DNA from: an uncultured Phycisphaerales bacterium
GTDB lineage: Bacteria; Planctomycetota; Phycisphaerae; Tepidisphaerales; Tepidisphaeraceae
Direction: 5' to 3'
DNA length: 64,000 bases
NCBI GenBank assembly: GCA_963755915.1
Contig: CAVWLP010000002.1
Coordinates: 2,560,001-2,624,000 of the forward strand
In this document: one piece after another, positions 2,805 to 58,753 of the stretch
Layout: every line of letters begins with the position of its first letter
Position numbering within the stretch: the first letter of the stretch is position 1
Position numbers and translations under genes: made by a program
The notes under the pieces: generated by a model
Told to the model about the DNA's origin: nothing
Databases searched by the model: none
Seen by the model: the letters and a program-made list of their open reading frames with translations, nothing else

Positions 2805-3718
2805 TGGATCTGTTCCACCAGGAATTCATCCGCAATGCGTTTGTGGCGGGCACGATGGTGGCCGTGCTGACCGCGATCATTGGATATTTCGTCGTAATGC
2901 GCGCGGAAGCGTTCGCGGCGCATGCGCTGTCGCATATCGGATTTGCAGGGGCGACAGGCGCGGCGCTGCTTGGGATCAATTCGCTTTTGGGAATGCTGGG
3001 ATTCACGGCGGGTGCGGCGCTGGTGATCGGGGCGATGGAAAAGCGGCTGCGGGGGCGGCACGTGGAGATCGGCATGGTGCTGGCATTTTCGCTGGGGCTG
3101 GGGGTGCTGTTTCTGCACCTGTACACGCGTGGGGCGACCGAGGCGGTGGCGATTTTATTCGGCTCGATTTTAAGCGTGGATTCGCAGGAAATTCGCCTGA
3201 TTCTGGTGCTGGGAAGTTTGGCGCTGGTGGCGCTGGCGGCGATGTTTCGGCCGCTGACGTTTTCGTCGGTCGATCCGGAAACCGCCGAGGCGCGGGGGGT
3301 GCCGGTCAGATTTGTTTCCGTGGCATTCATGCTGCTGCTGGCCGTAACGGTCGCGGAAGTGGTGCAGGTGGTGGGGATTCTGCTGATGTTTGCCCTGCTG
3401 ATCGCCCCGCCGGCGATCGCGCAGCATCTCTTTCGGCGGCCGGCACTGGTGATTGCCGCGGCGGCAATAATGGGGGTTGCGTTTACGTGGTTCGGTCTAT
3501 TGCTGGCGATCTGGACGCCGTATCCGGTGAGTTTTTATATCGCGGGGAGCGCGACGGCGACCTATCTCGTGGTGATTGGGCTGAGTCATCTGATACGGCC
3601 ACATCGGTATCGTCCGCCGGAGCATCCGGATCGGGAGTTTGTGGATCATCCACATCATCAGCATGCACATCCGCATGAGCATGGGCATACCCATTCGCAT
3701 GGCCATGAGCATGATTGA
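2804..3718 (+). CDS. znuB: Metal ABC transporter permease, copy 2, with His-rich C-terminal tail
   Basis: FAAHALSHIGFAGATG, DPETAEARGVP; TAATG coupling to copy 1; tail DHPHHQHAHPHEHGHTHSHGHEHD. Confidence 0.9.
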   Translation: MDLFHQEFIRNAFVAGTMVAVLTAIIGYFVVMRAEAFAAHALSHIGFAGATGAALLGINSLLGMLGFTAGAALVIGAMEKRLRGRHVEIGMVLAFSLGLGVLFLHLYTRGATEAVAILFGSILSVDSQEIRLILVLGSLALVALAAMFRPLTFSSVDPETAEARGVPVRFVSVAFMLLLAVTVAEVVQVVGILLMFALLIAPPAIAQHLFRRPALVIAAAAIMGVAFTWFGLLLAIWTPYPVSFYIAGSATATYLVVIGLSHLIRPHRYRPPEHPDREFVDHPHHQHAHPHEHGHTHSHGHEHD

Positions 3719-6413: not shown

Positions 6414-7082
6414 ATGCCGGACGATGAAATGACACGGCAAACAACGATTCTCCTGGTTGATGACCATCCGATTTTGCGATCGGGGATCCGGGCGCTGCTG
6501 GGTGCGGAACACTCGCTGCGGGTCGTGGGGGAAGCCTCCAATGGAAGGGTTGCGGTAGTGCTCGCCAGGGAGCTGCGGCCGGACGTGATCGTGATGGACG
6601 TTTGCATGCCCGATTTAAATGGGGTGGACGCGACCCGCCGGGTGCTGGACGCGTTGCCGGAGACGAAAGTCGTCGCCCTGTCGGCGAGGTGCGATGAGCG
6701 GACGGCAAAGGAAATGCTCAGTGCGGGGGCGATGGGTTTTATCGGCAAGGATGCGGTGTATGAGGACCTGGTCGCGGCCATCGTGGCGGTGATGAGCGGG
6801 CGGGTCTATACCCGGCTGCCAAAAGTCTCCCGGCGCGGGGGCAATGGGCATGAAGTTGGATCGTTGCCGTCGGCGTATGAGCGCCTGTCGATGCGGGAGC
6901 GGGAGACGCTGCAACTGATCGCCGAGGGAAAGGCGACCAAGGAGGTCGCGAATATATTGAGCGTGAGCCTGAAGACGGCGGAGACGCATCGGCGGAATAT
7001 CATGCAGAAACTGCAGTTGGACACGGTGGCGGCGCTGACGAAGTTTGCGATTCGCGAAGGGCTGACGACAGCCGATGCATAG
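6414..7082 (+). CDS. NarL/LuxR-family response regulator
   Basis: ILLVDDHPILRSG, VMDVCMPDLNG receiver; LSMRERETLQLIAEG...TAETHRRNIMQKL HTH. Confidence 0.93.
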   Translation: MPDDEMTRQTTILLVDDHPILRSGIRALLGAEHSLRVVGEASNGRVAVVLARELRPDVIVMDVCMPDLNGVDATRRVLDALPETKVVALSARCDERTAKEMLSAGAMGFIGKDAVYEDLVAAIVAVMSGRVYTRLPKVSRRGGNGHEVGSLPSAYERLSMRERETLQLIAEGKATKEVANILSVSLKTAETHRRNIMQKLQLDTVAALTKFAIREGLTTADA

Positions 7083-7096
7083 GAAGGCGGCGGGGA

Positions 7097-8700
7097 TTAT
7101 TTGCTGCGGCGGCGGGCGAGAAGATCGTTGATTCTCTCCAGAAGGTAATCGAAATCGACGGGCTTGCCGATGTGCTCCCAGAAGCCGGCGTCGATGGCCA
7201 TGCGCTTGTCGGTTTCGCGGGCGAAGGCAGTAAGGGCGATCGCGGGAATGGGGCTGAGTTTCCTTTCCTTTTCCAAAAGTCGAACCGAGCGGATGAAGGC
7301 GTAGCCGTCTTCGTCGGGCATGGCGATGTCGCCGACGAGAATATCGGGACGCGAATGCCGCAGCAGCTTGCGCGGCGTCGGCGGAATCTGCTTCGAGGAC
7401 CTTCATGCCGGCACGGCTAAACAGGGCGTTCAGGGCGCTGCGGGTTTCGCGGTCATCGTCGACGAAGAGGATGGTGGCGCCGGCGAGGTTAGCGAGCCTG
7501 GAAGGTTGCGACGATTTGGTTTTGGAGGTGGAAGCCCGCTGGCGCGGACGGCGGTCCGTTACCAGGGGCAGGGGCAGGCGCACAATGAAGGTGGCGCCTT
7601 GGCCCAAGCCGGGGCTTTCGGGAGCGATGGTACCGCCGTGAAGTTCGACAAGTTGTCTGGCGATGGCCAAACCGAGACCGATTCCAGAGATGGATCGGGT
7701 GTTGGAAACATCCGCCTGGCGGAAGGGCTGGAAGACGTAGGGGAGGAAATCGGGGCTGATTCCGGCCCCTGAGTCGGCGACGCGGATTTCGACTTCGTTG
7801 TTTCGGCGCTTCAGAGCGACGTCGACCTTCCCGCCGGGTGGGGTGAACTTGACGGCGTTGGTCAGAAGATTCCAGACGATTTGGCGAAGGCGATCGGGGT
7901 CGGCGTGGACGACGCCGGCGCGGTCGTCGAGCCTGGGGCGCACGGCGATATCGCGCGGAGGCGGCGGGCTTGATGGCGTCGAGCGCGTCGCGGATCACCG
8001 GCAGCAGATCGATGTCCCGCGGCTTGAGGCGCAGATTTCCCGTGGTGATGCGCGACATATCCAGCAGGTCTTCGATGAGCTCTTTCTGTGCCTCGGCACT
8101 GAGTTTGATGGCGCTGATTCCCTCGCGCGCCTGTTCGGGGGTGACGGTCTTTCCCTCAAGGATCTTGGTCCAGAGAAGAATGGCGCCCAGGGGCGTTCGC
8201 AGCTCGTGGGAGAGGGTGGCCAGAAACGCGTCTTTGACGCGGTTGGCGTCTTCGGCGGCGGCCTTGGAGGCGCGCAGTTCCGCCTCCACTTTTTTGCGGT
8301 CGCTGATGTCAATGCAATATTGGACGACGGTGCCGTCGCCCAGGCTTGCGCCGGCGACGTGCATCCAGGATCGCGAGCCGTCCCTGCGGAAATATTCTTT
8401 ATCAATAGGCCCGATGCGGCCGGTTTTCGCGAGCTTGCGCATCTGCTGCTCGCTCTGGAGAATATATTCCGGCGGGGTCGTCATCCGCCAATGGATCTGC
8501 CGGGCGGCGATCTGCCCGCGGGTGTATCCGGTCATGGCCAGGAAGGCGTCGTTGGCTTCGATGAGATAGCCACCGCTGTCGAAGATGAGCACACCGACGC
8601 CGCTGATGTTCATCATCTTCTTGAGCCGTTCCTCGCTGTGCGCCATGGATCGGCCGGCCGGCTTTTCGTCCTTCAGCGGTTTGGAGGATTGCTTAGACAT
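7097..8700 (-). CDS. Hybrid sensor histidine kinase PAS-HisKA-HATPase-REC (about 2 frameshifts)
   Basis: PAS (EANDAFLAMTGY), H-box FLATLSHELRTPL, N-box QIVWNLLTNAVKFTP, G-box GIGLGLAIA and receiver DIAMPDEDG...KP spread over ORFs 7489-8841, 6615-7943, 7097-7321. Confidence 0.85.
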
Positions 8701-8910
8701 TTTGGGAATACCGTGAAACGGGAATCGTCCAGGGCGTCTGGCCGAGCGTGTCCGGCGATTGTAGTGAGGGGACGGGTGCAGGGGAAACGAACGGGGATGG
8801 GGGGAGAGTTTTTCCAGCCTTCCCCATCTAAATCCCGCCATTGATCGCTCCGAATTCCATCGGTAGCATTTTCAACAACTTCATACGTTCAGGCAGGAAG
8901 GGACAGAAAA

Positions 8911-21605: not shown

Positions 21606-22355
21606 TCAATTTCCCAACCGCAAGCGCAGGCGCCTGTATGCCAGCACCGCGATGCCGAGCGCGACCGCGATAGCCCACGTCGACGGCTCGGGGACCGACG
21701 TCAGAATCAGTGCATTGAGCTGACCCCCAACATCAGGATCGCCGTCGTTAACGGGCGGCTGCGCATTTTGGCATAAGATCTGGAACGGCTGTGTCGTCGC
21801 ATCCGCCACAAATGTGCCGATCGCATAGGCGCCAATCGCCGGCGAACCATTGGCAAACGCATAGGTTTCAGTGAGCGACGGCGTCGAGCCATTGGACTGC
21901 GAAATTGTGAAGAGCCGGCCAATGTACACGGGGCGCGTGTCGGCCAACAGGACTTCAAATTCGTATGAATTCCCGATTGTCAGATTGTTGAGCGTATAGG
22001 TGATCTCATGGGTAAATGCACTTGGAAAATCGGCGGTATTCAATACGCTGTCGAACGCGGCGTCTCCCGTGGTGGCGGACATGAATACCGCGTTGGTGGA
22101 GACCCCTTCGCTCGACGACTCAGTTAGATTCGTACCATTGTCAGCACCAAAAATGATGCCGGTCGCCGAATCCGTCACGGCCGAAGAGGAACCAACATCG
22201 ACCGCGTACACCACGTTCGAGGTCAGCTCAACGCTGTTACTGGTAAACGTCCCCGAAGTCGGATACGCAATTACCGCGGCTTGCGTCCGTCCCGTGGCCA
22301 GCATGCCCATGAGAACCAACGAACATACGGCAGCCTTATGAATAAATCGACGCAT
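21606..22355 (-). CDS. PEP-CTERM exosortase-target protein
   Basis: Signal peptide MRRFIHKAAVCSLVLMGMLA; C-terminal VPEPSTWAIAVALGIAVLAYRRLRLR. Confidence 0.88.
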   Translation of the reverse strand: MRRFIHKAAVCSLVLMGMLATGRTQAAVIAYPTSGTFTSNSVELTSNVVYAVDVGSSSAVTDSATGIIFGADNGTNLTESSSEGVSTNAVFMSATTGDAAFDSVLNTADFPSAFTHEITYTLNNLTIGNSYEFEVLLADTRPVYIGRLFTISQSNGSTPSLTETYAFANGSPAIGAYAIGTFVADATTQPFQILCQNAQPPVNDGDPDVGGQLNALILTSVPEPSTWAIAVALGIAVLAYRRLRLRLGN

Positions 22356-22679
22356 TTTTTTCTCCTTTCGATGACCCCATCGCGTCAGCCAGCAATGGTG
22401 TGTCGCAGACTTCAACCCTCATCGTTCAAACTGAGAGGTGAAATCACGGGGCGGAACAATACAAAAATCGCAATAACGTTTTCAACCAAATTCGCCGAAG
22501 TCTGCGCAAAAATAGAAAATATTTCGTTGGTCATTTTGTTGCAACCGATTACAACGAATATAGGAAAAATGGGTTCCAAAGTATCCGTCGAAGCGGTTGT
22601 CGCAATGCACGCCGATCTCGACGCAAAGCACATCTTCCGCATTTGATAAGCTCGGCAAGATGACGGCTCGTGCTTGGGC

Positions 22680-23119: not shown

Positions 23120-24830
23120 ATGCTTAAGTTGAAGGCAGTATTCAGTACATTGGCAGCGGTTTCTCTGTGCGCCTGGTTTTGGGCCTATCCGGCTGCGGCA
23201 GTGCCGCCACCGCTGATCGGGCGGCCAAGGACTCGCTCGACGAAGTCGATCGCGAGCGGGCGCAGGATTCCAGCCTGGAAAACCTCGACCGCGTGCAGGC
23301 GACGCTCGACTCGCTGGCCAGCAACAGCAACCTTTCCGATGTGATGCAGATTCTCGTCCGCTCGCGGCAGGCGCAGGTGCGGCTGGAGCGGATTCAGCTC
23401 ATGATCGCCGACCTGCGGTCGCAGGAGCTGACCATCACCCGCAACATCGACGATATGGAGAATCTGGCGATGCAGGTCGCCTCGGCGCAGGCCAGTGCCG
23501 AGGCCCTCAAGGCGTATGAGCCGACCGGGCAGGTCGAGAAGCTCAAAGCCCAGGAAGCACAAATCGGCGGCTCGGAAACGCAAGCGACCTGGCAGATGGC
23601 CGGCGGCAGCGGAACGCTTCCCACGCTCTTCGCTATCAAAGCGCAGATTCAGAGCCTTACCCAGCAGATTCAGGATAATCAATCGCAGACCGATGCGGCT
23701 CACAAGCTTAGCGCGGCCAAGGGAGATGAGGCGGAGCAATATCTTCGCCGGGCCGAGGGAGAGCTGGGCGACAAGCAGGTTGCCGACACGGTTAGCGCCG
23801 CCACCGATCGCCGCGACGCGGCTTTGGCTGATTCGAAGGCGGCGGGTCTTGCCAATGAGCTCACCAAGCTTCAGGCTTCTCTCGACGAGGCCAAGGTGCA
23901 GGAGGCGGCGCTGGAATCGGCCATCACTTCACTCGAGGCGCAGATCCAGGCGCAGAACGACCGGTGGACGAGTATTTCGCAGCAGATCGATGCCGAGCGG
24001 AAGGTGCAGTCGGACCTGATCGTTCCCAGCGGCGAGCCGGGGAGCGTGTCGATCGACATTCTGGCGACGAGCCTGGCGGTTTCTCTGCAGGAAGCGGCGA
24101 AGATGCGCGATACCGTGAACGACCAGCTCAATGCCGTCATTCCGCAGCTCAATACGATCATCACCCACTGCAACGCTCTGCGCACCACCTGGCGTCAGGA
24201 CGAGATGGAAAAACAGGACAGCCCGGATGTGGCTATCTGGCACGAGACCGAGGAAATCCTGCATCCGATGTATTTCAACCTGCAAATGGCGACGGCACTG
24301 GAAGCGCGGGCATCGGTGGCGGCGGCGAAGACGCGCATCGACCTGATGATCGAGCGCATGTTCGACGGATTTACCGGTGCGGCGGCGGCGGGAAACCAGG
24401 GCGTCGTCGTTCCGGGACTGACGGCGCTGCTGGATAAGAATAAAACCGGTGTCGATGTTCCCAAAGCGGTGGGAGATTTGCAGCCGCTTGATCCGGATGC
24501 ACTGAAGCAGGAAGAAGACGACGCGAACAAGGCATTCAGTGAAGCCGCCGATGCGTACGGCGAGCAGCGTTTCGGAGCGACCGACACAGGCGCCCGGCCG
24601 CGGAGCGGCGCAACGTGGCGCTGCTGGGGACGGCGCAATTGAATCGGCAGTGGGCGGATTTCGCGTCGTTCATCGGCGACGCCAGCGGTGCCGCCGAACA
24701 CGAGCACGCGGCCGAAGACGCGCAGACGCAGATCGACCCGACGTTCTCGCTGGCGGCCACAGTGCTGCCGCCCGCGCCGCCGACATCGACTGGCGGTTCG
24801 TCTTCAAGCGGCGGGAATGCCAACCCCTAA
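23120..24830 (+). CDS. Long coiled-coil lipoprotein of unknown function (about 2 frameshifts)
   Basis: GGAG RBS and ATG 23120; signal joins to LGLSGC lipobox after a frameshift; Ala/Gln/Glu-rich heptads; C-terminus continues in ORF 24615-24830. Confidence 0.6.
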
Positions 24831-24913: not shown

Positions 24914-25095
24914 GAGCAGGCGTCAGGGAAGGCGGTGAAAATCCGCCGCGGACGCGCCGCTGTGAGTGACCGATGCGTGAGTGAGCATTGTGCGGGCCGT
25001 TTTTTGGGGCCCGATCGGTTCTGAAAAAGTCACTGGTGCAAGAGCGCCGGGAAGACTCAGGGCCGGAAGTCACGAGCCAGAAGACCTGCCTGCCA
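24914..25095 (+). ncRNA. Cobalamin (B12) riboswitch
   Basis: AGGGAAGGCGGTGAAAATCCGCCGCGG..CCGCTGTGA, GTCACTG...GGGAAG, B12 box GAGCCAGAAGACCTGCC; P1 GCAGGC/GCCTGC; TTGACA at 24880. Confidence 0.93.
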
Positions 25096-25252
25096 TGCGA
25101 GCCGCGCTGAAGCGCGAACTCGAAGCCATGTCCGAACGGGCCGCGCGAATCGGCGATCGGAAAGCCAATTTCACAATCTGGTTGGGCCGAATTTTTGCGC
25201 GGGAGCTTTCTCGTTGCGCGAATGTCGGCATTTCCGAAATTGGAGGAAGATC

Positions 25253-26293
25253 ATGCGTCATGTTTCCCGTATTTTTCGAGCGGTTTTTTTCTGCGGTTTG
25301 CTTCTGAAATTTGCTGCGGGGTATGCGCTGGGCCAAATCCAGGCGCCCGCGGGTTATCAGGTTGTTCCGCTGGTCGATTCTTCGGATCAGCCGTTTTCTC
25401 CGGACGGGCTGGCGGTGAGCTCGACGGGAGAGCTGGCGGCGACGAATGGGTCGACGGTTACGCTTTACAACACTTGGCAGAACGGCCGGACGGTGGTTGC
25501 CACGGCGACCGACCCTAATTGGGTTTTCGATACTGATCCGGTTTTCCTCAACAGTTCGACGATTGTCTTCGGCGAAGACGGGAACACCGACGCGCTGTGG
25601 GAAGTGAACTTCGCGACGCCGACGCCGACGATTACGCAGATTACGGCGAACAACAGTCTGCCGGCGGTTCAGGGCGTGGCGCTGATCAACTCGACCACCG
25701 CCCTGGTCTCCGGCGCGACCTCTTCGTTTGGGAGCGGCGGAGGGCTTTATCTTGACTCGGTGAATCTGACGCAGACATCCAGCAACATTTCGCCGGTGGT
25801 GCAGAACGTCGGCAGTGGGTATGTGGGCGCTGCCGGTGTGTCGCCGGGCGGGGCGGATTTGCTTTTGGAGGACTCGATCAGCGGACCTTCGCTGGTCCAC
25901 TATTACGACAGCAACACGTCGTCAGCCATTGATCTGACCGATGGCGGCGGGTCGGGCGCCTACGGAATTACCTTCGATTCCGCTGGGATCGCTTATGTCA
26001 CCACTACCGACACGATCACCGCGATCTCGGGAATCGATTCTGCCTCGCCACAGGTGAGCGAGTTTGCCTCGGATTATGCGAATTCGGAGAATCCGTTCCC
26101 TTTCCTGACGAGCATTTCGTTTACCGGCGGGGGGTTCAATCCGAATCTTCCGCTCAGCGAAGGCACCGGCGCGTTGATCTTCAACGACGCTGACGCAGGG
26201 CAGGCGTATGCGATCGTCGTTCCCGAGCCGGCATGCGCGGGACTGCTCGCGGTGCTGTGTGCCGGAGGGCTCATGCGACGGAAAACACGATGA
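25253..26293 (+). CDS. PEP-CTERM surface protein, probable beta-propeller, first gene under the B12 riboswitch
   Basis: GGAGG RBS; signal peptide; blade-like repeats PDGLAVSSTGEL / VQGVALINSTTALV / AYGITFDSAGIAYV; VPEPACAGLLAVLCAGGLMRRK. Confidence 0.82.
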   Translation: MRHVSRIFRAVFFCGLLLKFAAGYALGQIQAPAGYQVVPLVDSSDQPFSPDGLAVSSTGELAATNGSTVTLYNTWQNGRTVVATATDPNWVFDTDPVFLNSSTIVFGEDGNTDALWEVNFATPTPTITQITANNSLPAVQGVALINSTTALVSGATSSFGSGGGLYLDSVNLTQTSSNISPVVQNVGSGYVGAAGVSPGGADLLLEDSISGPSLVHYYDSNTSSAIDLTDGGGSGAYGITFDSAGIAYVTTTDTITAISGIDSASPQVSEFASDYANSENPFPFLTSISFTGGGFNPNLPLSEGTGALIFNDADAGQAYAIVVPEPACAGLLAVLCAGGLMRRKTR

Positions 26294-28902
26294 CACGCAG
26301 GCGACAATTTGCATCCTTCGGCACGGCGGCGCTTTAACAGCGCCGCCGTGCGCGCCTGCGCCGATCAGTTTTTCGCGTCCCAGGTGATCAGCACCAACAG
26401 CGGAGAGGGCGAGCAGGGAGAATTCGCCGACCCGACCGTCGCCCTCGGCGGCCCCACGGGTGAAGGCGATTTTATGCAGACGCTGAATGTTTATCGCCTT
26501 GGGTACGGTGGCTCAGCGACTTTCGGTTTCGGCGATGAGGCCATCACTGACGGGGCCGGCGCAGATTTCGTCGTGTATGCGAATGCGTTCTACGTGAATG
26601 GAGATTCCAGCGAGGATTACGCGGAGTTGAGTTATGTCTCGGTGTCCAGCGATGGGGTTCATTTTGCAACCTTCCCCAACGTCTCCCAGACCCCCCAGTC
26701 TGTCGGGATGTACGGGAACATCAACCCCGCCTGCGTCAGCGGCTACGCCGGGGTGACGCCGGTCTACGCGAACGTCACGACCAATGCGATCGATCCGTTC
26801 GATCCCGCAGTGGCCGGGGGCGATGCGTTTGATCTTTCGGAGCTGGATGATTCGCCCCTCATCGCCGAGGGATATCTGAATCTCAACGATATTCGCTACG
26901 TGCAGCTTACCGACGCGGTGAGCGGCACGAGCGTCGATTCGGATGGTCACACGATTTACGATCCGGGGCTGTGCGAAAACGTGAACTCGATCGCTGTCAT
27001 CAGCGGGGCGTATTCCTCGGGGGGCGGGGGGATCACCTGGTCGGATGGTTCGGGGGATAACCAATGGAATGCAACCAGCACAAACTGGAACGGCGGGGGG
27101 GGCATACAAATTATTCGGATGGGAGCAACGTCATTCTCGATGACAGCTCCGGGAAATATGCGGTCACTTTGAACACCGTCGTGAATCCGGGTTCAGTTAC
27201 TGTCAGCGACAGCGGCGGCGATTATTTGATAAGCGGAACGGGCGGCATCTCCGGGACGGGAAGCCTGGTGAAAACGGGCAGCCGGACGCTTACGCTGGAC
27301 ACGGTGAATTCGTACAGCGGCGGAACTTCGGTTTATGCCGGGACGCTGGTCGCTGGAGTGAGCGGTGCTCTTCCAGATGGGGAGGTGACAGTCACTGGGG
27401 GTGAGTTGCAGCTTGCGGCCGGGACGGGAATGACACAATTGAGTTCGCTCGTTGTCGCCGGGGCGGGCGTGGTCGATGTCGGGAAAAATGGATTGATGAT
27501 CGACTACGGGGACGGGAGCGATCCGATCGGAGCGATCTCGCAATACATCGCGAACGGTTACAACAACGGGGGCTGGAACGGGCCGGGAATTGTCTCGTCG
27601 GCAGCTCGATCGCCGACGGACGGTTTGTATTACGGCGTTGGATATGCCGATGGGGCTGATGGCGTCGTCAACGGGTTGGGATCGGGATTTATCGAGGTTA
27701 AATACACGCTGCTGGGGGATGCGAATCTTGACGGAGTGGTTAACGGCAGCGACTTCAGCATTCTTGCCTCCAATTTTGGGGAAGGGGTTACCAACTGGGA
27801 TCAGGGGAATTTTTTGTTCACGTCGTCGGTGAATGGCTCGGATTTTTCGGTGCTGGCGGCGAATTTCGGGCAGGGATCGACAGCGCCGGCAGACCGCGCG
27901 GCGCTGGAGGCTTTTGCGGCGGCCAATGGGCTGATGGCGGAGTTGCCGGAACCTGGTGGGGTGGCGTTGGTTGCGATTGGGGTGCTTGGGGTGATGCGAA
28001 GAAAACGCGCTTCCCTTCGGGTTGCGGCTAAACGGGGCGGTTTTACTCTCGTCGAGCTGCTCGTTGTCATCGGAATCATCGCGATTCTTGTCGGGCTTAT
28101 CCTGCCGGCGCTGGGCATTGCGCGGCAGCAGGCGCAATCTGCGTTTTGCCAGAATAATCTGCGCCAATATGTGATTGCCTCGCTGACGTATGCGCAGGAT
28201 TGGCACGGCTATTGGCCGCCGGTTGCGGTCGATATGTTGCGCACTAACCTCAACCGGTGGGGCGGCACACGCCTCACCACAAGCGATCCCTTGACATTTT
28301 TCCCCAGCACCAAGTCTCCAAACCAGTCGCCAGGTTCCTGCCTCCTGCCGTATCTACGGAACGCAGCGGTATTGTCATGTCCAAATTTTCAGCCCGCAGT
28401 GACCTCCGGCATCCTTGCGTTTGAGGCAACATCCGGCGCCTATCCCGGCGGATATGGATACAACGGTTACTATCTCGGCGCGAGCACAGACATTCCGCAG
28501 CTCGTGATCACCGCCAAGACCGCTGCGCAGATGGACGTGCTTGTGGGGAATGTTCCGGCCAAGCTGACGATGATCCGGCACTCCTCGGCGAAGATTGCCT
28601 TCGCGGATGCGGCGATGGGGCAGCAGGGAAATCTGCTGATTGAGTATTCGTTTCTTGAACCGCCGATGGATATCACTTCTTACGAATACGGGGTTGTTTC
28701 ATCGGTGATGTGGGGCGAGGCGTCGCCGTCGATCCATTTTCGGCATCGGGGATACGCCAACGTGGCGTGGGCGGACGGGCATGTCACAAGCGAGAAATTC
28801 CAGTGGACCTATCCGGGAACCAACAACTACGGAGCGAACAATAATCTGCTCCAACTGGGCTATTTCGGCCCTCAGGACAACTCGCTATTCTCGCGAGATT
28901 GA
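26290..28902 (+). CDS. BtuH-like domain + beta-strand stalk + dockerin-like + PEP-CTERM, continuing in frame into a DUF1559 prepilin (frameshifts near 26335 and 27100)
   Basis: ATGA coupling at 26290; [82 protein letters not shown]...[18 protein letters not shown]...CQNNLRQ...[15 protein letters not shown]. Confidence 0.78.
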
Positions 28903-28930: not shown

Positions 28931-29922
28931 ATGACCATCGGCTTCGCGCGGAGCCTGGCCGTGTTCGATAGTCTTGCTCTGGGAATGTTGTGGTCCACCA
29001 AGGGATTGAAGTCCTAAAGCGGAACATTCAGTCGGTATTTTTTGGGCACGGCCGGTCGGTGGATCTTCTGCTGACGGCGCTGTTCGCGCGCGGGCATGTG
29101 CTGATCGAGGATGTGCCTGGTGTCGGCAAAACGGTGCTGGCGCGGTCGCTGGCGCGGAGCCTGGACTGTAAATTCAGCCGGATTCAGCTTACGCCCGATC
29201 TGCTGCCCAGCGACGTTCTGGGGGTTTCGGTGTTCAATGGGCGGACCCAGGCCTTTGAATTCAAGCCCGGCCCTATTTTTGCCAATTTTCTGCTTGCTGA
29301 CGAAATCAACCGCACGACGCCTCGAACGCAGTCGGCCCTGCTGGAAGCGATGAGCGAAGAGCAGGTGAGCGTGGAGAACCAGACGCTGCCGCTGCAGCGG
29401 CCGTTCATGGTGGTGGCCACGCAAAATCCTTTTGAGTTTGAGGGAACCTATTATCTTCCGGAGAACCAGCTCGACCGATTTTTGCTGCGGATATCGCTGG
29501 GATATCCGGGTCGGACGGCCGAGCAGAGAATTGTCACGACGCAGCCGGGCCGGGCGGCGCTGGAGCAGCTCAAGCCGGTGATGACCGCGGCGGAAGTCGT
29601 GGCGATACAGGATATGGTGGCCCGCATTCGCATTGACTCGTCGATCGTCGATTACGTGCTGGATCTCGTCGAAGCCACTCGGCATCACGAGCAACTTCAC
29701 CTGGGGGTTTCCCCGCGCGGCGCGCTGGCGCTGACGCAGGCGATCCAGGCGACGGCCGTGGTCGGCGGGCGCGATTACGTTACGCCTGACGACGTCAAAA
29801 CCCTGTTCATTCCCGTCTGCGCCCACCGGGTTTTGAGCAAGACGTATATACACAACGGCGACGCAGTGACGACCGGGCGGGTGCTTCAGTCGATTCTGGA
29901 TATCACCCCGGCGCCGAGATAA
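28931..29922 (+). CDS. moxR: MoxR-family AAA+ ATPase
   Basis: GHVLIEDVPGVGKT, RIQLTPDLLPSD, LLADEINRTTPRTQSALLEAM, ATQNP, GVSPR; strong RBS before 28931 suggests a 5' frameshift (ORF track start 28990). Confidence 0.93.
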
Positions 29923-29948
29923 TGTCTGGTTAGAGCCGGAAGCCGGTC

Positions 29949-31244
29949 ATGGCCACGCTGAGCGATACCAACCTGTATGAACGCCTGCGGCCGCACGTGG
30001 CGGCGGTTTGGCGCTGGCTGACCGCGCAAAACGGGCACGGGGAGGACGGCGATTCCGCGACCCCCATCCGCCGCCGGCCCGGCGTCGATTTTTCGCTCAC
30101 CGGCCTCATTTACTGCGCGATGATGCTGTTCATGGGTCTGGCCGCCATCACCAGCCAGGCGAATCTTCTGTTCGCGGTTTTTGGGTTAATGATCGGCATC
30201 CTGCTGATCAGCGCGATGATCTGCCGGCTGGTGCTGATGCGGCTGCACGTCGAGCGGGTGATTCCCGAATCGACATGCGTCGGCCAGCCGGCGACGATTC
30301 GATACGATTTTCTTAACGCCAAGCGATTCTGGCCCAGTCTGTCGGTCTGCCTCGCGGAGCTGGAAGGGGCAGAGGCGTTCACGCGGCAGCCGCACGCTTA
30401 CATGCTTCACGCGGCGGCAGGAAAATCGGCGCAAGTGCCGATTACGGTAATTCCCAAGCGGCGGGGCAAGCACAAGCTCAGCAGTTTTCAGATCAGCACG
30501 AGTTTCCCGTTCGGGTTTGTGAAGCGGGCCATGATGGGCCGCCGCGACGATACGATCCTGATTTACCCCGCAATGGGCGCGGTGAGCGCGCGTCTGCTGG
30601 CGCTTTGCCAGTCGGCGGAGCGCGGCGGCGCCAACATGCAGCCGCGGCCCAACGGCGCCGATGAGTTTTACGGCGTAAAGGAATTCCGCTGGGGCGACAA
30701 CCCGCGCTGGATTTACTGGAAGCGAAGCGCCCGCACGGGCGAGCTGGTGAGCCGCGAGATGGTGCAGATCTCTCCGCCGCGCCTGCTGATCCTTGTGGAT
30801 ACGTTTCTGGAAACCGCGACGCTCAGCGGTCACGCCGACGTGGAGCGCGCCATCGCGATGGCGGCGTCCCTGGCGAACCGGGCGCTGGATTCCGGCATGG
30901 CGGTGGGTCTTTGCGCCTGGAACGGAAAGTGGACGAGCATCGCTCCACAGCGGGGGAAGCGCCATTGTCGCGACATCCTCGCGGAACTGGGCGGTTTGCC
31001 GCTGAATCGCACGGCTCCGACGGCGCAGCTCATCGAGCAGGGGCAAAACCTCCTGGCCGAAGGGGTGACCCCGGTTCTCATCACCGCCAGCGGCGCCCAT
31101 CCGACGAAGGGGGGACGATCGCGGGGCGGGATGATCGTGGTTGCCGTCAAGTCTGAACAGGCGCAAAGCTGGTTTCAGTTCGATCCGGCGGTCGATTTCA
31201 CGCGATGCTCCCCGGCCGATCAGATGTCCGCGCTGTCGAGCTGA
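29949..31244 (+). CDS. DUF58 domain protein
   Basis: Two N-terminal TMs, TSFPFGF, EFYGVKEFRWGDNPRWIYWKRSARTGELVSRE. Confidence 0.9.
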   Translation: MATLSDTNLYERLRPHVAAVWRWLTAQNGHGEDGDSATPIRRRPGVDFSLTGLIYCAMMLFMGLAAITSQANLLFAVFGLMIGILLISAMICRLVLMRLHVERVIPESTCVGQPATIRYDFLNAKRFWPSLSVCLAELEGAEAFTRQPHAYMLHAAAGKSAQVPITVIPKRRGKHKLSSFQISTSFPFGFVKRAMMGRRDDTILIYPAMGAVSARLLALCQSAERGGANMQPRPNGADEFYGVKEFRWGDNPRWIYWKRSARTGELVSREMVQISPPRLLILVDTFLETATLSGHADVERAIAMAASLANRALDSGMAVGLCAWNGKWTSIAPQRGKRHCRDILAELGGLPLNRTAPTAQLIEQGQNLLAEGVTPVLITASGAHPTKGGRSRGGMIVVAVKSEQAQSWFQFDPAVDFTRCSPADQMSALSS

Positions 31245-31247
31245 ATT

Positions 31248-33506
31248 ATGTATGACATCCGCCAATTTCGTCCGACCCTCTACGTCCTGCTGATGCTGGG
31301 CGTGACGGGATTCTGCCTCGCGGCCGAAGCGCCGGGGCTTTGGATCATGGCAGCGGGGGGAATCATGCTAAACGCCTGGTTGGTGAAGACCAATCGCTTC
31401 GCCCCGATGCCGCGGTTTCTGGCCAGCATCATTACGCTGGGCGCATTGGCGCTGGTGACGGTGGAAGTTCGGGCCGGCGGAGCGCCGCCGATCCTGACGG
31501 TGGGGCAGTTCATCGTTCTGCTTCACCTGGTAAAGCTTTTTGAGCTGCGCTCCAACCGCGACTATGCGCAGCTCCTGATCCTCAGTCTGCTACTGGTGGT
31601 GGCGGCGGCGATCAGCACGGCGAGCCTGCTGTTCGGGATCATCTTCATTATCTACATGTTTCTGTCCCTGCACTGCTCGCTGCTGTTCCACCTGAAAGTG
31701 GAGATGGACCAGGCCCGGGAGCTGTATCGCCAGCCGCAGGATCGTGTGAACCCAGCGCTGCTGCGGCAGGACGCGCGCGATCTGCCGCGCTCGATGCGCC
31801 GGCTGACCAGCCTGATCGCGCTCTTCGGGATCGCGACGGCGGTGGCGGTCTTTCTCTTCTTCCCGCGCGGCGCCGGGCAATCGATCCTCGGCCCGCTTCA
31901 GGCGCCCGCCTCGCGGGCGCTGTCCGGATTCAACGATCAGGTGGGTTTCCAGAACATCGCTAAAATCACCCGCAGCGACGATGTGGTCGCCCGGGTCGAG
32001 CTGTACAAAAGTGGCGTAAAGATTACGCATTCCATGCCGCTGCTGCTGCGCGGCTCGACGCTGGACGTTTACAGCGGCAATGACCCGGAGCGCGGGCGCT
32101 GGCAATGGTCGCGCTCGCAGTTGCTCGATCGATTCGACGACGCTGGAGATACCAGCTCGGAGGATGCCCATCGGACGCTGTACGACACCGGCGTCCCCGG
32201 AATCTGGACACAGGTGATCAACCTCCAGCCCACGGCGACGAACAAGCTCTTTGCGATGGCCGGCCCTACGGGGATTTCGTCCCCGCACGAAATGGAGATC
32301 CATTTCTCGAAGGAAGATGGGGTGCTGGAGACGGCGCCGCCGGTGCTGGAGCCGATCACCTATACCGTCACGTCGTCCGGCGAGCTGGACGTGCCCGATT
32401 CTCCGCCCGACCAGTCGGCGGAGCGGTCGGTCATCGATCCTGCGATCGCCGCCTACGTTCGCCAGGCGGGGGTGTGCGGAACCGACGCGCTCGGCCAGCC
32501 GCTGGCGCGGTATCCCACCAGTGGAAATCACATCTACGACCACCAGATCGCCGCGAACATCGAGCAGCACCTGCGGTCCAAGTTCACCTACACGACCGAC
32601 CTGACCAACCTCGGCTCCCTGGGCGATCGCGATCCGCTGGCGGCGTTTCTGACCGATTTCAAGCGCGGCCACTGCGAATATTTCGCAGGCGCGATGACTC
32701 TCATGTGCCAGAGCCTGAATATTCCCGCGCACCTGGTGGTCGGTTTCCGCTGCGCTCCCGAGGATTTCAACACCATGGGCGACTATTTCGTGGTCAAGCA
32801 GTCCGACGCGCACGCGTGGTGTGAGGTTTTCACGGGCCAGAAATGGGAAACATTCGATCCCACGTCCGGCCGAGGCGTTGAGGGTACGGGCGCGAATCCG
32901 TACGTGACGATAGTCAAGCAGTTCGTCGATTACCTGGAATTCAAATGGGCGGTCAGTGTGGTCGCTTACGACACAGGCAACCGAAAGAATTTCATGGACG
33001 GGCTGACCATCGCGATGGACAAAACCGCGGTCGACGGCAGCCAGAACCTCGCCGACTGGCTCGACAGATTCCAGAACCAGATCGCCTCGCCGACGGCGCT
33101 CAGTTGCGTGATCGCGGCCATGATCAGTTCGTGCTTTGGGCTGGTGGGATGGTTTCTGGTCGAGCGCTGGCGTCTTCATCGCCGCGCCAGACGCATCGGA
33201 ATCAGCGCCATCGACTCCGCCGAGCAGATGCGCCTGGTGCGCCAGCTTGGCTTTTATGACGATCTGCTGCGAATCCTTTCGCGATACCAGATCGAGCGTC
33301 CGCGCAACCAGACGCCGCTGGAATTCAGCCGCTCCCTGGCCTACCTGCCGGCTGATGTCTACCACGATATTTTTCGCCTGACGCAGGCGTTTTATCGCAT
33401 CCGCTACGGCGGCGGTAAACTTCCATCGCACCCCCGGCGACATCTGGCCAATGCCGTCTATCGCATCCAACTGGCGCTGGATGCGCTCCATCACGAACTG
33501 CAATGA
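31248..33506 (+). CDS. TgpA-like DUF3488/transglutaminase/DUF4129 membrane protein
   Basis: Multi-TM N-terminus; catalytic triad RGHCEYFA, AHAWCEV, WETFDPT; QTPLEF...FYRIRYG tail. Confidence 0.9.
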   Translation: MYDIRQFRPTLYVLLMLGVTGFCLAAEAPGLWIMAAGGIMLNAWLVKTNRFAPMPRFLASIITLGALALVTVEVRAGGAPPILTVGQFIVLLHLVKLFELRSNRDYAQLLILSLLLVVAAAISTASLLFGIIFIIYMFLSLHCSLLFHLKVEMDQARELYRQPQDRVNPALLRQDARDLPRSMRRLTSLIALFGIATAVAVFLFFPRGAGQSILGPLQAPASRALSGFNDQVGFQNIAKITRSDDVVARVELYKSGVKITHSMPLLLRGSTLDVYSGNDPERGRWQWSRSQLLDRFDDAGDTSSEDAHRTLYDTGVPGIWTQVINLQPTATNKLFAMAGPTGISSPHEMEIHFSKEDGVLETAPPVLEPITYTVTSSGELDVPDSPPDQSAERSVIDPAIAAYVRQAGVCGTDALGQPLARYPTSGNHIYDHQIAANIEQHLRSKFTYTTDLTNLGSLGDRDPLAAFLTDFKRGHCEYFAGAMTLMCQSLNIPAHLVVGFRCAPEDFNTMGDYFVVKQSDAHAWCEVFTGQKWETFDPTSGRGVEGTGANPYVTIVKQFVDYLEFKWAVSVVAYDTGNRKNFMDGLTIAMDKTAVDGSQNLADWLDRFQNQIASPTALSCVIAAMISSCFGLVGWFLVERWRLHRRARRIGISAIDSAEQMRLVRQLGFYDDLLRILSRYQIERPRNQTPLEFSRSLAYLPADVYHDIFRLTQAFYRIRYGGGKLPSHPRRHLANAVYRIQLALDALHHELQ

Positions 33507-51312: not shown

Positions 51313-53181
51313 ATGCACGGCGTTTTTGTACACCGGTCGCGGGGCCTCCATCCACGGCGCCGCGCGGTTATTCCCAGATTCCTGAAACTCGCCTGCCCGG
51401 CGATCGCGCTGGTGGATCTCGGTGCATCCGCTGCAAGTGCCTTAACCGAATCCACGAACTGGTCGGGCTATGCCGCCACGTCCGGCACTGCCTTTACCGA
51501 TGTTTCGGATACCTTCGTGGTTCCGTCGCTGACGGCGCCTTCGTCGGGGACGAGTTATTCATCGTTTTGGGTCGGTCTGGACGGGGCAACGGGCACGTTG
51601 GATCCGACGGTGGAGCAGTGTGGTATCCAGGGAACGATCAGCGCGGGGCAGTCTTCCGGGACATATTACCCGTGGTTCGAATTTGCCCCAGCCGGCCAGG
51701 AGGAGATCGAAAACTTCAGCATTAATGCCGGCGATACGATCCATCTGGATGCGACCTATGAACCCTCCGAGAGCACGACTGGAAATTACGCGTATTTGTT
51801 CGACATAGACGACGAGTCGACCGGCCAGTCGTTCGACCAGACGGAGTTCACTTCGACTGAGGATCAGCGTTCCTCGGCGGAATGGATCGCTGAGGCGACA
51901 TCGCTGAAGCAGGGCACGATGGTTGTGGTGCAAACCCTGGCCAACTTTGGGAGCGTGACATTAACGAACTGCGTGGCAGCGCTTAATGGGGGAGCCGACC
52001 AGTCGGCGGCATCGCTTGGCGGCACCGGATACGAAATAATCCAGGCAAATGAAGTGGTGGCGATTCCCAGCAATCTGAATTCGACCGGCGAGATATTCAC
52101 GGATTACTGCGCGTCAAGCCTGCCGAACCTGGTTTGGAAGGATTCCACCGGAAATAAGCAATGGGATTTAACCAGTGCGAACTGGAATGACGGGACGGCC
52201 ACCACGGCTTACGGGGATGCCTGCCCGGTTACGTTTAACGACAGCAACGGGGGCAGCGGAAATTATGCGGTGACCCTCAACGCCCTGGTAAGCCCGGCAT
52301 CGGTGACTGTCAGCAACAGTTCGGGCAATTACGTGATCAGCGGCTCCGGGGGAATTGCCGGCGGGGCGGCGCTGAGCAAGTCCGGGTCGGATACGATCAC
52401 GCTTGATACGGCGAACTCGTTTACCGGAGGCGTGACTGTCAGTGCCGGGACGCTGGTGGCGGGCGTGAGCGGGGCACTGCCGGATGGGGCGGTGAAGATT
52501 ACCGGTGGTACGCTGCGGCTGGGCACTAACACCGGTAACCCGACAGTTTCGTCGCTGTCGATTTCCAGCGGGGAGATGGACATTGGCAACAACACGCTGT
52601 TCATCACGTACGGATCGAGCGATCCGATTTCGACGATCGCGGGGTATATCAAGACGGGATATAACTCCGGCAACTGGAACGGGACCGGGATTATCTCCTC
52701 CAGCGCCCGGACAAAAACCAACGGCCTGGTGTATGGCGTGGGGTGGGCGGATGGAAAGGATAATGTAGTCAGCGGGTTGAATTCGGGGACGATCGAGTTG
52801 AAATACACGCTGCTGGGGGATGCGAATCTGGATGGGACGGTGAACGGGAGCGATTTCAGCATCCTCGCGGCGAATTTTGGTTTGGGGGTGACGAACTGGG
52901 ACCAGGGTAATTTTTTGTTTTCGTCTTCGGTGAATGGGTCGGATTTTTCGGCGTTGGCGGCGAATTTTGGGCAGGGGGATTCCGGGGCGGATGTGGGCGT
53001 TTCTGTGGCCGACATTGCGGCGCTGGATGTGTTTGCGGAGGCAAATGGGTTGGCGTTGCCGAGCATAGGGGTGGTGCCGGAGCCTGTTAGCGCCGGGATA
53101 GTGATCCTGTCCGGACTTGGCATGCTGGCCCTGCGGCGGCGGCGCGGACGAGCCGGGCGAATTAGCCCGAATCAACTTTGA
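51313..53181 (+). CDS. G1-family glutamic peptidase with beta-strand stalk, dockerin-like tail and PEP-CTERM
   Basis: ESTNWSGY, SSFWVGLDG, VEQCG (catalytic Q), YYPWFEF, SSAEWIAE (catalytic E), LANFGSV; VPEP..RRRR. Confidence 0.87.
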   Translation: MHGVFVHRSRGLHPRRRAVIPRFLKLACPAIALVDLGASAASALTESTNWSGYAATSGTAFTDVSDTFVVPSLTAPSSGTSYSSFWVGLDGATGTLDPTVEQCGIQGTISAGQSSGTYYPWFEFAPAGQEEIENFSINAGDTIHLDATYEPSESTTGNYAYLFDIDDESTGQSFDQTEFTSTEDQRSSAEWIAEATSLKQGTMVVVQTLANFGSVTLTNCVAALNGGADQSAASLGGTGYEIIQANEVVAIPSNLNSTGEIFTDYCASSLPNLVWKDSTGNKQWDLTSANWNDGTATTAYGDACPVTFNDSNGGSGNYAVTLNALVSPASVTVSNSSGNYVISGSGGIAGGAALSKSGSDTITLDTANSFTGGVTVSAGTLVAGVSGALPDGAVKITGGTLRLGTNTGNPTVSSLSISSGEMDIGNNTLFITYGSSDPISTIAGYIKTGYNSGNWNGTGIISSSARTKTNGLVYGVGWADGKDNVVSGLNSGTIELKYTLLGDANLDGTVNGSDFSILAANFGLGVTNWDQGNFLFSSSVNGSDFSALAANFGQGDSGADVGVSVADIAALDVFAEANGLALPSIGVVPEPVSAGIVILSGLGMLALRRRRGRAGRISPNQL

Positions 53182-58662: not shown

Positions 58663-58753
58663 ATTCATTTCCATCGCTGAAATTTGCTTGTTGAAGCTTC
58701 TAACGCGGAGTATATTGCGGGGTGTACGGCAAGCGCTTTCTGCGGAGGTTTTT

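Follow-up and report, generated by a model that had tools for sequence, protein, structure and literature searches.

An operon behind a cobalamin riboswitch in a planctomycete joins a BtuH-like domain to a type IV prepilin: a candidate corrinoid capture and uptake system

Introduction

Vitamin B12 is traded among microbes, and its uptake decides who depends on whom. To our knowledge, the step across the outer membrane is known only as TonB-dependent BtuB, and surface proteins that scavenge the vitamin have been described almost only in gut Bacteroidota. The locus described here raises the question of how a planctomycete might capture corrinoids. It lies in a stretch of 64,000 nucleotides from an uncultured Phycisphaerales bacterium (contig CAVWLP010000002.1, positions 2,560,001 to 2,624,000; hereafter the window, in whose coordinates positions are given) and consists of a cobalamin riboswitch followed by two overlapping genes. 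Gene 1 encodes a secreted beta-propeller protein. Gene 2 encodes a precursor of about 870 residues, in which a BtuH-like N-terminal domain (the N-domain) is followed by stalk, dockerin-like and PEP-CTERM parts and whose C-terminal third is a type IV prepilin with a divergent DUF1559-type globular domain.

DUF1559 pilin-like proteins are hugely expanded. No literature was found that connects B12 uptake with DUF1559 pilins, with PEP-CTERM proteins or with planctomycetes and, as far as the literature was searched, none in which a pilin takes part in the uptake of a vitamin. The unit is read here, with a probability of roughly 0.7, as a B12-repressed operon for the capture and uptake of corrinoids. 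The evidence comes from the riboswitch, the homology of the N-domain, the architecture of the precursor and the recurrence of the arrangement in other genomes.

Results

A cobalamin riboswitch precedes two overlapping genes

The aptamer matches RF00174 over the full length of the model, above the gathering score of 31.5 bits (Table 1), and is the sole Rfam family that cmscan finds in the 64 kb window. It is also the only RF00174 match found in the whole 6.63 Mb, three-contig genome, in a search which scored 150 of 527 first-look candidates and may have missed weak ones. A Shine-Dalgarno-like GGAGGAAG, with the ATG of gene 1 at 25253 next to it, sits 146 nt past the aptamer. Between the aptamer and this ATG no terminator-like site was seen; no sigma-70-like promoter was found in the leader analysis, and the predicted RNA fold of 25060-25270 is no better than that of shuffled sequences (z +1.48). 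From the sequence we infer that B12 represses the operon through the riboswitch, which would be its mode of regulation. The ATG of gene 2 at 26290 overlaps the TGA of gene 1 as ATGA, and the two genes are predicted to be translationally coupled.

No family of btuB or other TonB receptors, btuFCD, energy-coupling factor (ECF) transporters, cob or metE was found among the open reading frames (ORFs) of the unit. Most of this outline had already been read from the letters by a first-pass annotation, and it stands: the riboswitch, now with a score of 73.3 bits over the full model; the gene order and the coupling, and the succession of N-domain, stalk, dockerin-like repeat, PEP-CTERM signal and prepilin; and the lack of recognised B12 uptake or synthesis genes in the unit, with which the family scans of the ORFs agree.

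The N-domain appears to be a distant homologue of BtuH

The structure model of the N-domain, based on 47 sequences, reaches a predicted local distance difference test (pLDDT) score of 94.4 and a predicted template modelling (pTM) score of 0.91. In a Foldseek search of the PDB with this model, 8blw_B comes first (E 1.3e-4) and 7biz second and third (E 8.9e-3). As described in PMC10404256, chain B of 8BLW is BtuG1, in which a C-terminal extension of ~250 residues is a BtuH domain, and 7BIZ is BtuH2 with B12. Alignment with VIA-align gives a Z of 13.1 for 7biz_A (root-mean-square deviation, rmsd, 3.0 A; 156 residues aligned; 21% identity) and 12.6 for 8blw_B (168 aligned; 23% identity). The next matches are jelly rolls of the CBM32, PAPP-A and IFT25 types, with Z no higher than 11.4, ~125 aligned residues and ~12% identity.

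A link at the level of sequence is provided by a planctomycete member of the family, G073, in which two PKD domains precede the domain. Searched directly against PDB sequences, the N-domain family profile finds 8blw_B with an E of 0.013 and 7biz_A with one of 0.51. The G073 protein matches the same profile at E 1.3e-13 and, with phmmer, matches both 8blw_B (E 3.2e-14) and 7biz_A (E 2.7e-11). Because G073 in this way bridges the family profile and the BtuH chains, the N-domain and BtuH are taken to be homologous in sequence, through a transitive link. The NCBIfam model NF033170 (LIC_13355 lipoprotein) also matches the N-domain (E 1.7e-17, 63.5 bits), below its cut-off of 120, and no Pfam family was found over the domain in the 47 family members.

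The contacts of BtuH2 with B12 include Asn399 and Phe401 (PMC8941943, section 8). The set compared here comprised Gln333, Asn399, Phe401, His476, Tyr510, Trp511, Trp577 and Leu578, with the chain index of 7biz taken as the numbering of the paper minus 100, an offset inferred from the match of Q233, N299, F301 and W477/L478 to Gln333, Asn399, Phe401 and Trp577/Leu578. Asn399 and Phe401 fall on an N-A-F motif of the family, in which N72 is invariant and F74 is conserved in >90% of members. Taken together, sequence and model suggest that the N-domain is of the BtuH type, distantly homologous to the domain with which Bacteroides BtuH binds B12, and that its pocket is partly different.

The gene 1 propeller is of a generic six-bladed type

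The gene 1 protein begins with a signal peptide and ends in VPEP, a hydrophobic helix and RRKTR; the PEP-CTERM family PF07589 is on record for two of its homologues (P0029 and P0032). No family was found for it in Pfam (E up to 0.01) or NCBIfam, and a word-indexed search of 5.8 billion proteins returned 34 relatives, all of them metagenome proteins without names. Its AlphaFold model, built on the alignment of these relatives (pLDDT 87.1, pTM 0.84), has 24 strands and is therefore read as six four-stranded blades. The top structural matches are the six-bladed NHL, Pizza6 and PknD propellers (Z ~25, rmsd 2.6 A, 245 residues aligned), and no BtuG or BtuK chain is among the 50 matches of the model listed by Foldseek or VIA-align. 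BtuG is described as a seven-bladed propeller (PMC10404256, section 6; PMC13616437). As the gene 1 propeller is predicted to have six blades, it is not regarded as BtuG-like: the model points to a generic NHL/PknD-type fold, for which BtuG is at most an analogy.

The resemblances that had been suggested for the two proteins have thus parted company. That of the N-domain to BtuH is borne out by both fold (Z 13.1 and 12.6) and sequence (through G073), while the proposed BtuG-like propeller has turned out to have six blades of the NHL/PknD type and no sequence match to BtuG.

Gene 2 continues from a surface protein into a prepilin

In the window gene 2 is spread over three overlapping frame pieces. 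The first (26290-26337) has a signal-peptide-like start and then a stop, the second (26309-27172, 287 residues) holds the N-domain that the first-pass annotation quoted, and the third (27064-28902, 612 residues) holds the PATR repeat, the dockerin-like double repeat, the PEP-CTERM signal, the prepilin motif and a C-terminal domain of 260 residues. Both frame breaks are probably assembly errors, because a short-read contig restores the frame at one of them and intact relatives cover both. In the relative G001, whose gene 1 is 84% identical, gene 2 is a single frame of 849 residues, and in the DNA alignment with G001 the window is short of one base just past a G8 run. In a soil-metagenome contig of run X1 (1091 nt, depth 3.7) an additional base follows 27102, along with two substitutions, and here the frame of G001 is restored. 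The break near 26330 is common to the window and G001, and the listed contig pieces of runs X1-X4 leave 26268-26339 uncovered. Two homologues from other assemblies, P0155 and P0156, carry signal peptide and domain in one frame (M[KN]RRRQ..AAVRA[SC]ADQFFAS). Runs X1-X4 come from one study, may include the source sample of the genome and are not fully independent of it. Other genes of the same assembly are broken too; a secretin, for example, falls into two pieces and a T2SSE ATPase into five. P0155 has no Cys in the cleavage region, and the gene 2 signal peptide is of the Sec type, not that of a lipoprotein.

No stop codon stands between the PEP-CTERM signal and the prepilin motif, which share one frame; a contig from run X2 that spans this junction (27842-28134) is identical to the window. 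Of the 19 closest gene 2 homologues, 10 have a recorded PF00404 match. The prepilin motif scores above both curated cut-offs, and DUF1559 and H-X9-DG score below theirs (Table 1); the H-X9-DG motif can nonetheless be read in the sequence, and PF07596 is on record for many homologues. The Atlas clusters nearest to the pilin domain are generic pilin/DUF1559 clusters with N_methyl and SBP_bac_10, in which PF07596 is found in 26-78% of members. The genome contains 21 other DUF1559 matches. Because none of these is near the riboswitch and the DUF1559 match of gene 2 is below threshold, the gene 2 pilin is assigned, from its sequence, to a distinct and dedicated subfamily.

The fusion itself is common. 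Among 80 database proteins of 466-1486 residues that match the pilin part, 64 carry a BtuH-like and a pilin domain in one chain, and the fusion is also kept in the relatives G001 and G011. In 17 of the 19 closest proteins a motif search finds PEP-CTERM at a distance of 20-45 residues ahead of [GA]F[TS]L[VI]ELL; the other two show no strict match to the prepilin motif. In some fusions just RRRR(K)A separates the sorting-signal helix from the Phe, so there is no room for a separate start codon of the pilin. Fusions from Hydrogenedentota have a different hydrophobic anchor and basic stretch where PEP-CTERM stands. The BtuH-like domain and the globular domain of the pilin were also modelled as a complex; the scores, 0.09, 0.40 and 0.00 against a mark of 0.32, speak neither for nor against one.

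Some related proteins combine other parts. P0224 (568 residues) and P0225 (619 residues) consist of a BtuF-type Peripla_BP_2 domain, a prepilin motif and a pilin domain, and one of them is titled Verrucomicrobiota. In P0174, PF01902 (Diphthami_syn_2) is fused to the pilin domain. P0164, P0168, P0170 and L009:3760-7368 hold two or three exported modules in a frame (a propeller or other domain with PEP-CTERM, a BtuH-like domain with PEP-CTERM, and a pilin), and where one module joins the next, a membrane helix leads into a signal peptide or a prepilin signal.

Table 1. Riboswitch, genes and protein parts of the operon, with positions in the window
Feature	Position	Strand	Basis
Cobalamin riboswitch aptamer RF00174	24901..25107	+	73.3 bits, E 3.6e-16, model 1-189 of 189
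Shine-Dalgarno-like GGAGGAAG	25241..25248	+	read from sequence; 4 nt 5' of gene 1 ATG
Gene 1, predicted secreted six-bladed beta-propeller with PEP-CTERM end, 346 residues	25253..26293	+	model, motif
Gene 2 start and signal peptide	26290..26368	+	ATGA overlap; frame break near 26330
BtuH-like N-domain (predicted corrinoid-binding jelly roll)	26369..27040	+	model, profile, structure matches
One-base gap breaking the gene 2 frame	27102..27106	+	DNA alignment with G001; X1 contig
PATR (autotransporter-type beta-helix) stalk repeat	27265..27351	+	PF12951 33-34 bits, cut-off 27; TIGR02601 29.4, cut-off 19.85
Dockerin-like double repeat (D.N.DG.VN..DF)	27691..27850	+	PF00404 E 0.017, below cut-off
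PEP-CTERM-type sorting signal (LPEP, helix, RRKR)	27946..28014	+	motif; PF07589 11 bits, below cut-off
Prepilin motif G|FTLVELL	28030..28101	+	PF07963 27.2 bits, cut-off 21.2; TIGR02532 23, cut-off 16.3
Pilin globular domain, divergent DUF1559/H-X9-DG type	28126..28902	+	PF07596 18.3, cut-off 23.3; TIGR04294 16.4, cut-off 19

The arrangement recurs behind cobalamin riboswitches

Gene 1 is present in 4 of 60 relatives, with RF00174 directly upstream in all four, and the relatives that carry it keep the order riboswitch, propeller, BtuH-like domain, pilin. The three parts are joined to different degrees: they are three genes in G031, the last two are fused in G001, and all three form one frame of 1202 residues in G011. 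Of 401 genomes sampled from the phylum, 49 match the BtuH-like profile. Leaving the present genome aside, the 48 others belong to 18 families and 38 genera, and in 43 of them RF00174 lies on the same contig and strand, no more than 2 kb upstream of the BtuH-like gene, as determined by comparing the coordinates of domain and riboswitch. A search with stricter filters gives a single RF00174 match in 31 of the 48.

Pfam and hidden Markov models (HMMs) of our own were used to scan the neighbours of the BtuH-like gene. Of 20 loci fetched from the phylum, 19 contributed, with 60 selected ORFs between them. One locus (L061) runs riboswitch, DUF4465 with PEP-CTERM, BtuH-like, pilin, Peripla_BP_2, ABC_tran and FecCD, and two others (L050 and L051) have DUF4465 with PEP-CTERM, BtuH-like and pilin. 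A PQQ-type propeller stands between the BtuH-like gene and the pilin in L053, and in two families of the phylum FG-GAP propellers or DUF6580 membrane proteins follow the BtuH-like gene. No Plug/TonB receptor family was found in these 60 ORFs. DUF4465 (PF14717), the BtuJ family, is a B12-binding jelly roll (PMC13398666); according to section 11 of that paper eight divergent members bind B12, one of them from a planctomycete. The same section mentions transporters among the neighbours, as well as 84 members whose neighbours carry no annotation, and names no pilin.

Seen from the pilin, the picture is similar. An alignment of the globular domain gathers 414 relatives in contigs of one genome per species, and the locus counts refer to the best 80 of these, titled Phycisphaerae, Tepidisphaeraceae, Sedimentisphaerales, Pirellulales, Hydrogenedentota, Nitrospirales-labelled metagenome-assembled genomes, Verrucomicrobia and Rhodothermaeota. 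RF00174 lies upstream on the strand of the gene in 48 of the 80 loci, that is, in 47 of the 61 with a full flank of 3.5 kb and in 1 of the 19 with a truncated one. By our own HMMs, 58 of the 80 have a BtuH-like domain in the same protein or next to it on the upstream side, 26 have DUF4465, 5 a propeller and 1 BtuF/BtuC; the DUF4465 and Btu HMMs are weak, each resting on one to three sequences. In L108 and L061 the pilin directly precedes BtuF-like genes. Behind cobalamin riboswitches, Planctomycetota and Hydrogenedentota share a conserved triad: an accessory binder (a propeller here, the DUF4465/BtuJ family elsewhere), a BtuH-like domain and a pilin.

At several loci the leader or its first genes vary. 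Tandem cobalamin aptamers stand before a BtuH-like/pilin gene at G170:C200:1189-1372 and 1570-1767, at L090:413-580 and 833-1032, and at L093:2600-2767 and 3050-3218. One family has a gene of ~500 residues without a Pfam match between riboswitch and BtuH-like gene (L044:648-2219, L049:725-2332 and L059:687-2132), in the slot which the propeller or DUF4465 fills elsewhere. Another family has a riboswitch-linked BtuH-like gene followed by DUF6580 and PF01902 genes (L042:2123-3601, L047:2577-3137, L047:1889-2587 and L047:4745-5419).

Transport, sorting and pilus genes elsewhere in the genome

The genome assembly has a completeness of 81%. A BtuC-like permease gene and a BtuF-like binding protein gene lie on contig C2 at ~4.62 Mb; both score below their equivalog cut-offs, and the pair belongs to the only strong FecCD-type transporter of the genome. 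Between the two lies a gene for a group II intron reverse transcriptase/maturase (TIGR04416, 389.9 bits; L067:5980-7368 on the minus strand). The genome also has three matches above cut-off to exosortase (PF09721), a prepilin peptidase (PF01478, 75.5 bits), secretins and many T2SSE ATPases, and four matches above cut-off to the B12-binding domain. CbiC and CobS were not found in the genome at this completeness, and DUF4465 has no match in it or in the window.

No BtuB equivalog was found in the genome. It does encode two TonB-dependent receptors with Plug domains, for which the best model is NF053590 (TOL_0244 family; 499 and 519 bits); on the TonB-B12 model TIGR01779, which describes BtuB, both score at most 97 bits against a cut-off of 599.7.

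Discussion

A proposed route for corrinoids

The proposed sequence of events is as follows. At low B12 the riboswitch would open expression. The BtuH-like domain, and perhaps the propeller too, would be exported, and the stalk would hold the domain at the cell envelope by way of the PEP-CTERM/exosortase route, where it, and perhaps the propeller, would bind corrinoids. Two helices of the precursor would make a hairpin in the inner membrane, with the PEP-CTERM helix passing from outside to inside, a basic loop, and the pilin helix passing back from inside to outside. Prepilin peptidase would then cleave G|F on the cytoplasmic side, so that each precursor yields one binder and one mature pilin. 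The pilin may enter a filament of the type II secretion or type IV pilus kind, or may stay anchored in the membrane, and would pass the corrinoid towards the BtuF/BtuC-like ATP-binding cassette (ABC) importer encoded elsewhere in the genome. In this way the pilin would take part in moving the corrinoid inward.

In its boldest form, the proposal is that Planctomycetes and Hydrogenedentota may import B12 by a pilus-type machine that replaces TonB-dependent BtuB or works beside it. A riboswitch-controlled pilin would form or cap a filament like those of type II secretion or of type IV pili, take the corrinoid from BtuH-like, BtuJ-like or propeller binders and bring it through a secretin to BtuF, with binder and pilin made as one polyprotein whose hairpin is resolved by prepilin peptidase and exosortase. 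As a whole this is a doubtful proposal, offered tentatively.

What had been expected of the locus when it was first described has fared well where its relatives are concerned. Homologues are associated with the riboswitch in all four gene 1 relatives, in 43 of 48 genomes with the BtuH-like domain and in 47 of 61 full-flank pilin loci, and the link of the pilin to B12 uptake, then a proposal, is now backed by DUF4465 and btuFCD neighbours and by fusions. The claim that the system is independent of BtuB is not supported as it was put, given the two TonB-dependent receptors of the TOL_0244 family.

Weighing the alternatives

The capture function could be as proposed and the pilin nevertheless never enter a filament, serving instead as a periplasmic corrinoid shuttle tethered to the inner membrane or as a docking site for the ABC importer, in a BtuF-like role. 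This is a possible, if tentative, reading. DUF1559 was first named SBP_bac_10 in Pfam, P0224 and P0225 fuse Peripla_BP_2 to the pilin, the pilin directly precedes BtuF-like genes in L108 and L061, and the operon holds no pilus machinery gene. Glu at position +5 is typical of filament-forming pilins, however, and the full prepilin motif including this Glu is nearly invariant in the subfamily; moreover, BtuF-like genes co-occur with the pilin and are not replaced by it. A different outer-membrane step, in which the capture proteins feed a TonB-dependent transporter encoded elsewhere, much as BtuH and BtuG feed BtuB in Bacteroides, would make the pilin an accessory and the system not BtuB-independent. 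[quoted passage not shown] Neither receptor of the present genome has a riboswitch, though, the one RF00174 found in the genome being that of the operon; their scores of at most 97 bits on TIGR01779 fall far from the cut-off of 599.7, and the 60 ORFs of the 19 BtuH-like loci include no Plug/TonB family. This route is considered unlikely.

Two further readings would remove the capture function altogether. The proteins might be surface adhesins or envelope proteins without a corrinoid role, for which B12 is merely a regulatory cue, as could be argued from the PATR stalk, dockerin-like and PEP-CTERM parts, which are common in planctomycete surface proteins, and from the partial conservation of the BtuH pocket. 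Against this stand the homology of the N-domain to BtuH, the recurrent neighbourhood with DUF4465, a B12-binding family, and the btuFCD neighbourhood of L061, which make it very improbable. The least probable alternative is that gene 2 is a decaying pseudogene whose frame breaks are real: the window sequence has two such breaks and G001 shares the one at the gene start, but the X1 short-read contig restores the frame at 27103, a histidine kinase, a secretin and a T2SSE ATPase are similarly broken in the assembly, and completeness is 81% for an assembly of three contigs.

Several observations weigh against corrinoid capture and uptake as the function of the operon, and are set out together here. 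Identity to BtuH is just 21-23%, and the direct profile E-value of 0.013 is marginal. The pocket of BtuH2 is only partly kept: another residue stands opposite Gln333, Trp577 is apparently absent, in a region where the alignment is weak, and His476, Tyr510 and Trp511 have no mapped counterpart in the N-domain alignments. No relation of the propeller to a known B12 binder could be detected, and genes for an inner-membrane transporter and for pilus machinery are absent from the ORF scans of the window. At 81% completeness the missing cob genes are no proof of auxotrophy. The association with the riboswitch has its misfits, too. In G066 the riboswitches lie 7 kb upstream and 1.8 kb downstream of the BtuH-like gene, in G165 the riboswitch is on a different contig, and in G362 RF00174 is below threshold at 25.9 bits; in G209 and G147 the BtuH-like gene is at a contig edge, where a riboswitch cannot be judged. 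RF00174 is lacking in 14 of the 61 full-flank pilin loci, and an Rfam rescan at E up to 0.1 of eight loci that have a BtuH-like domain and pilin but no riboswitch found none. Related genomes are, besides, non-independent samples.

Relation to known systems

The nearest known relatives are the B12-binding surface lipoproteins of B. thetaiotaomicron, namely BtuH2/BT1956, BtuH1 and the H-domain of BtuG1/BtuGH (PMC8941943; PMC10404256). The fold is the same and sequence homology can be traced, the N-A-F motif holding Asn399 and Phe401 is kept, and the gene likewise stands behind a cobalamin riboswitch. As in BtuH2 the domain is combined with stalk domains, which in the relative G073 are PKD repeats like those of BtuH2, and as in BtuG1 it is paired with a propeller, to which it is fused in G011 in the same domain combination. 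In contrast to BtuH, the planctomycete protein would be anchored by a signal peptide and PEP-CTERM and not by a lipid, it is fused to a prepilin, its operon lacks btuB, and its carriers belong to Planctomycetota and Hydrogenedentota. A review from 2026 assigns most BtuH homologues to Bacteroidota and adds three Firmicutes (PMC13616437, section 28).

Gene 1 resembles BtuG and BtuK in being a secreted propeller beside a BtuH-type gene under a B12 riboswitch, and differs from them in its six predicted blades, in having no sequence match and a PEP-CTERM anchor, and in standing without a BtuB partner gene nearby. The place of this propeller is taken in other lineages by BtuJ/DUF4465, which often comes with PEP-CTERM; the BtuH-like domain itself has the fold of a different family.

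The pilin shares with pseudopilins of type II secretion and with type IV pilins a prepilin motif with Glu at +5, and the genome has the prepilin peptidase, secretins and assembly ATPases to go with it. Competence pili, for their part, bring DNA in. It departs from known pilins in its DUF1559/H-X9-DG kind of globular domain, in the regulation of its gene by a riboswitch, and in its "leader", since the part ahead of the cleavage site amounts to an entire exported protein of about 580 residues. With the BtuB-BtuFCD system of E. coli the locus has in common control by a riboswitch and a BtuF/BtuC-like ABC importer, encoded in the genome here and in the same operon in L061; unlike that system, it comes with no BtuB equivalog that could be found.

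The cassette would thus be a variant of riboswitch-controlled surface scavenging of B12, with a real chance that its outer-membrane step is of a new kind. It points to a widespread and apparently undescribed system of B12 acquisition in soil and aquatic Planctomycetota and Hydrogenedentota, and would give one subfamily of DUF1559 pilin-like proteins its first concrete candidate function. The precursor is unusual in that an exosortase sorting signal abuts a prepilin signal. The BtuH fold would be extended to new phyla, which suggests new scaffolds for B12-binding proteins.

Other genes of the window

The operon is followed on the plus strand by genes for a MoxR AAA ATPase, a DUF58 protein and a TgpA-like transglutaminase (28990-33506), which also adjoin it in G001, G011 and G031. 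They were considered as part of the unit and rejected: none of the 60 ORFs from 19 more distant loci matches them, and they are taken as neighbours. Upstream, a coiled-coil protein (23167-24642) is likewise conserved. The histidine kinase mentioned above (6615-8841, minus strand) is split over two frames, with PAS and HisKA in 7489-8841 and HATPase_c in 6615-7943, most likely by an assembly indel. Other PEP-CTERM/PATR surface proteins are encoded at 21606-22415 (minus strand), 51313-53181 and 58628-61420, one of them with Peptidase_A4.

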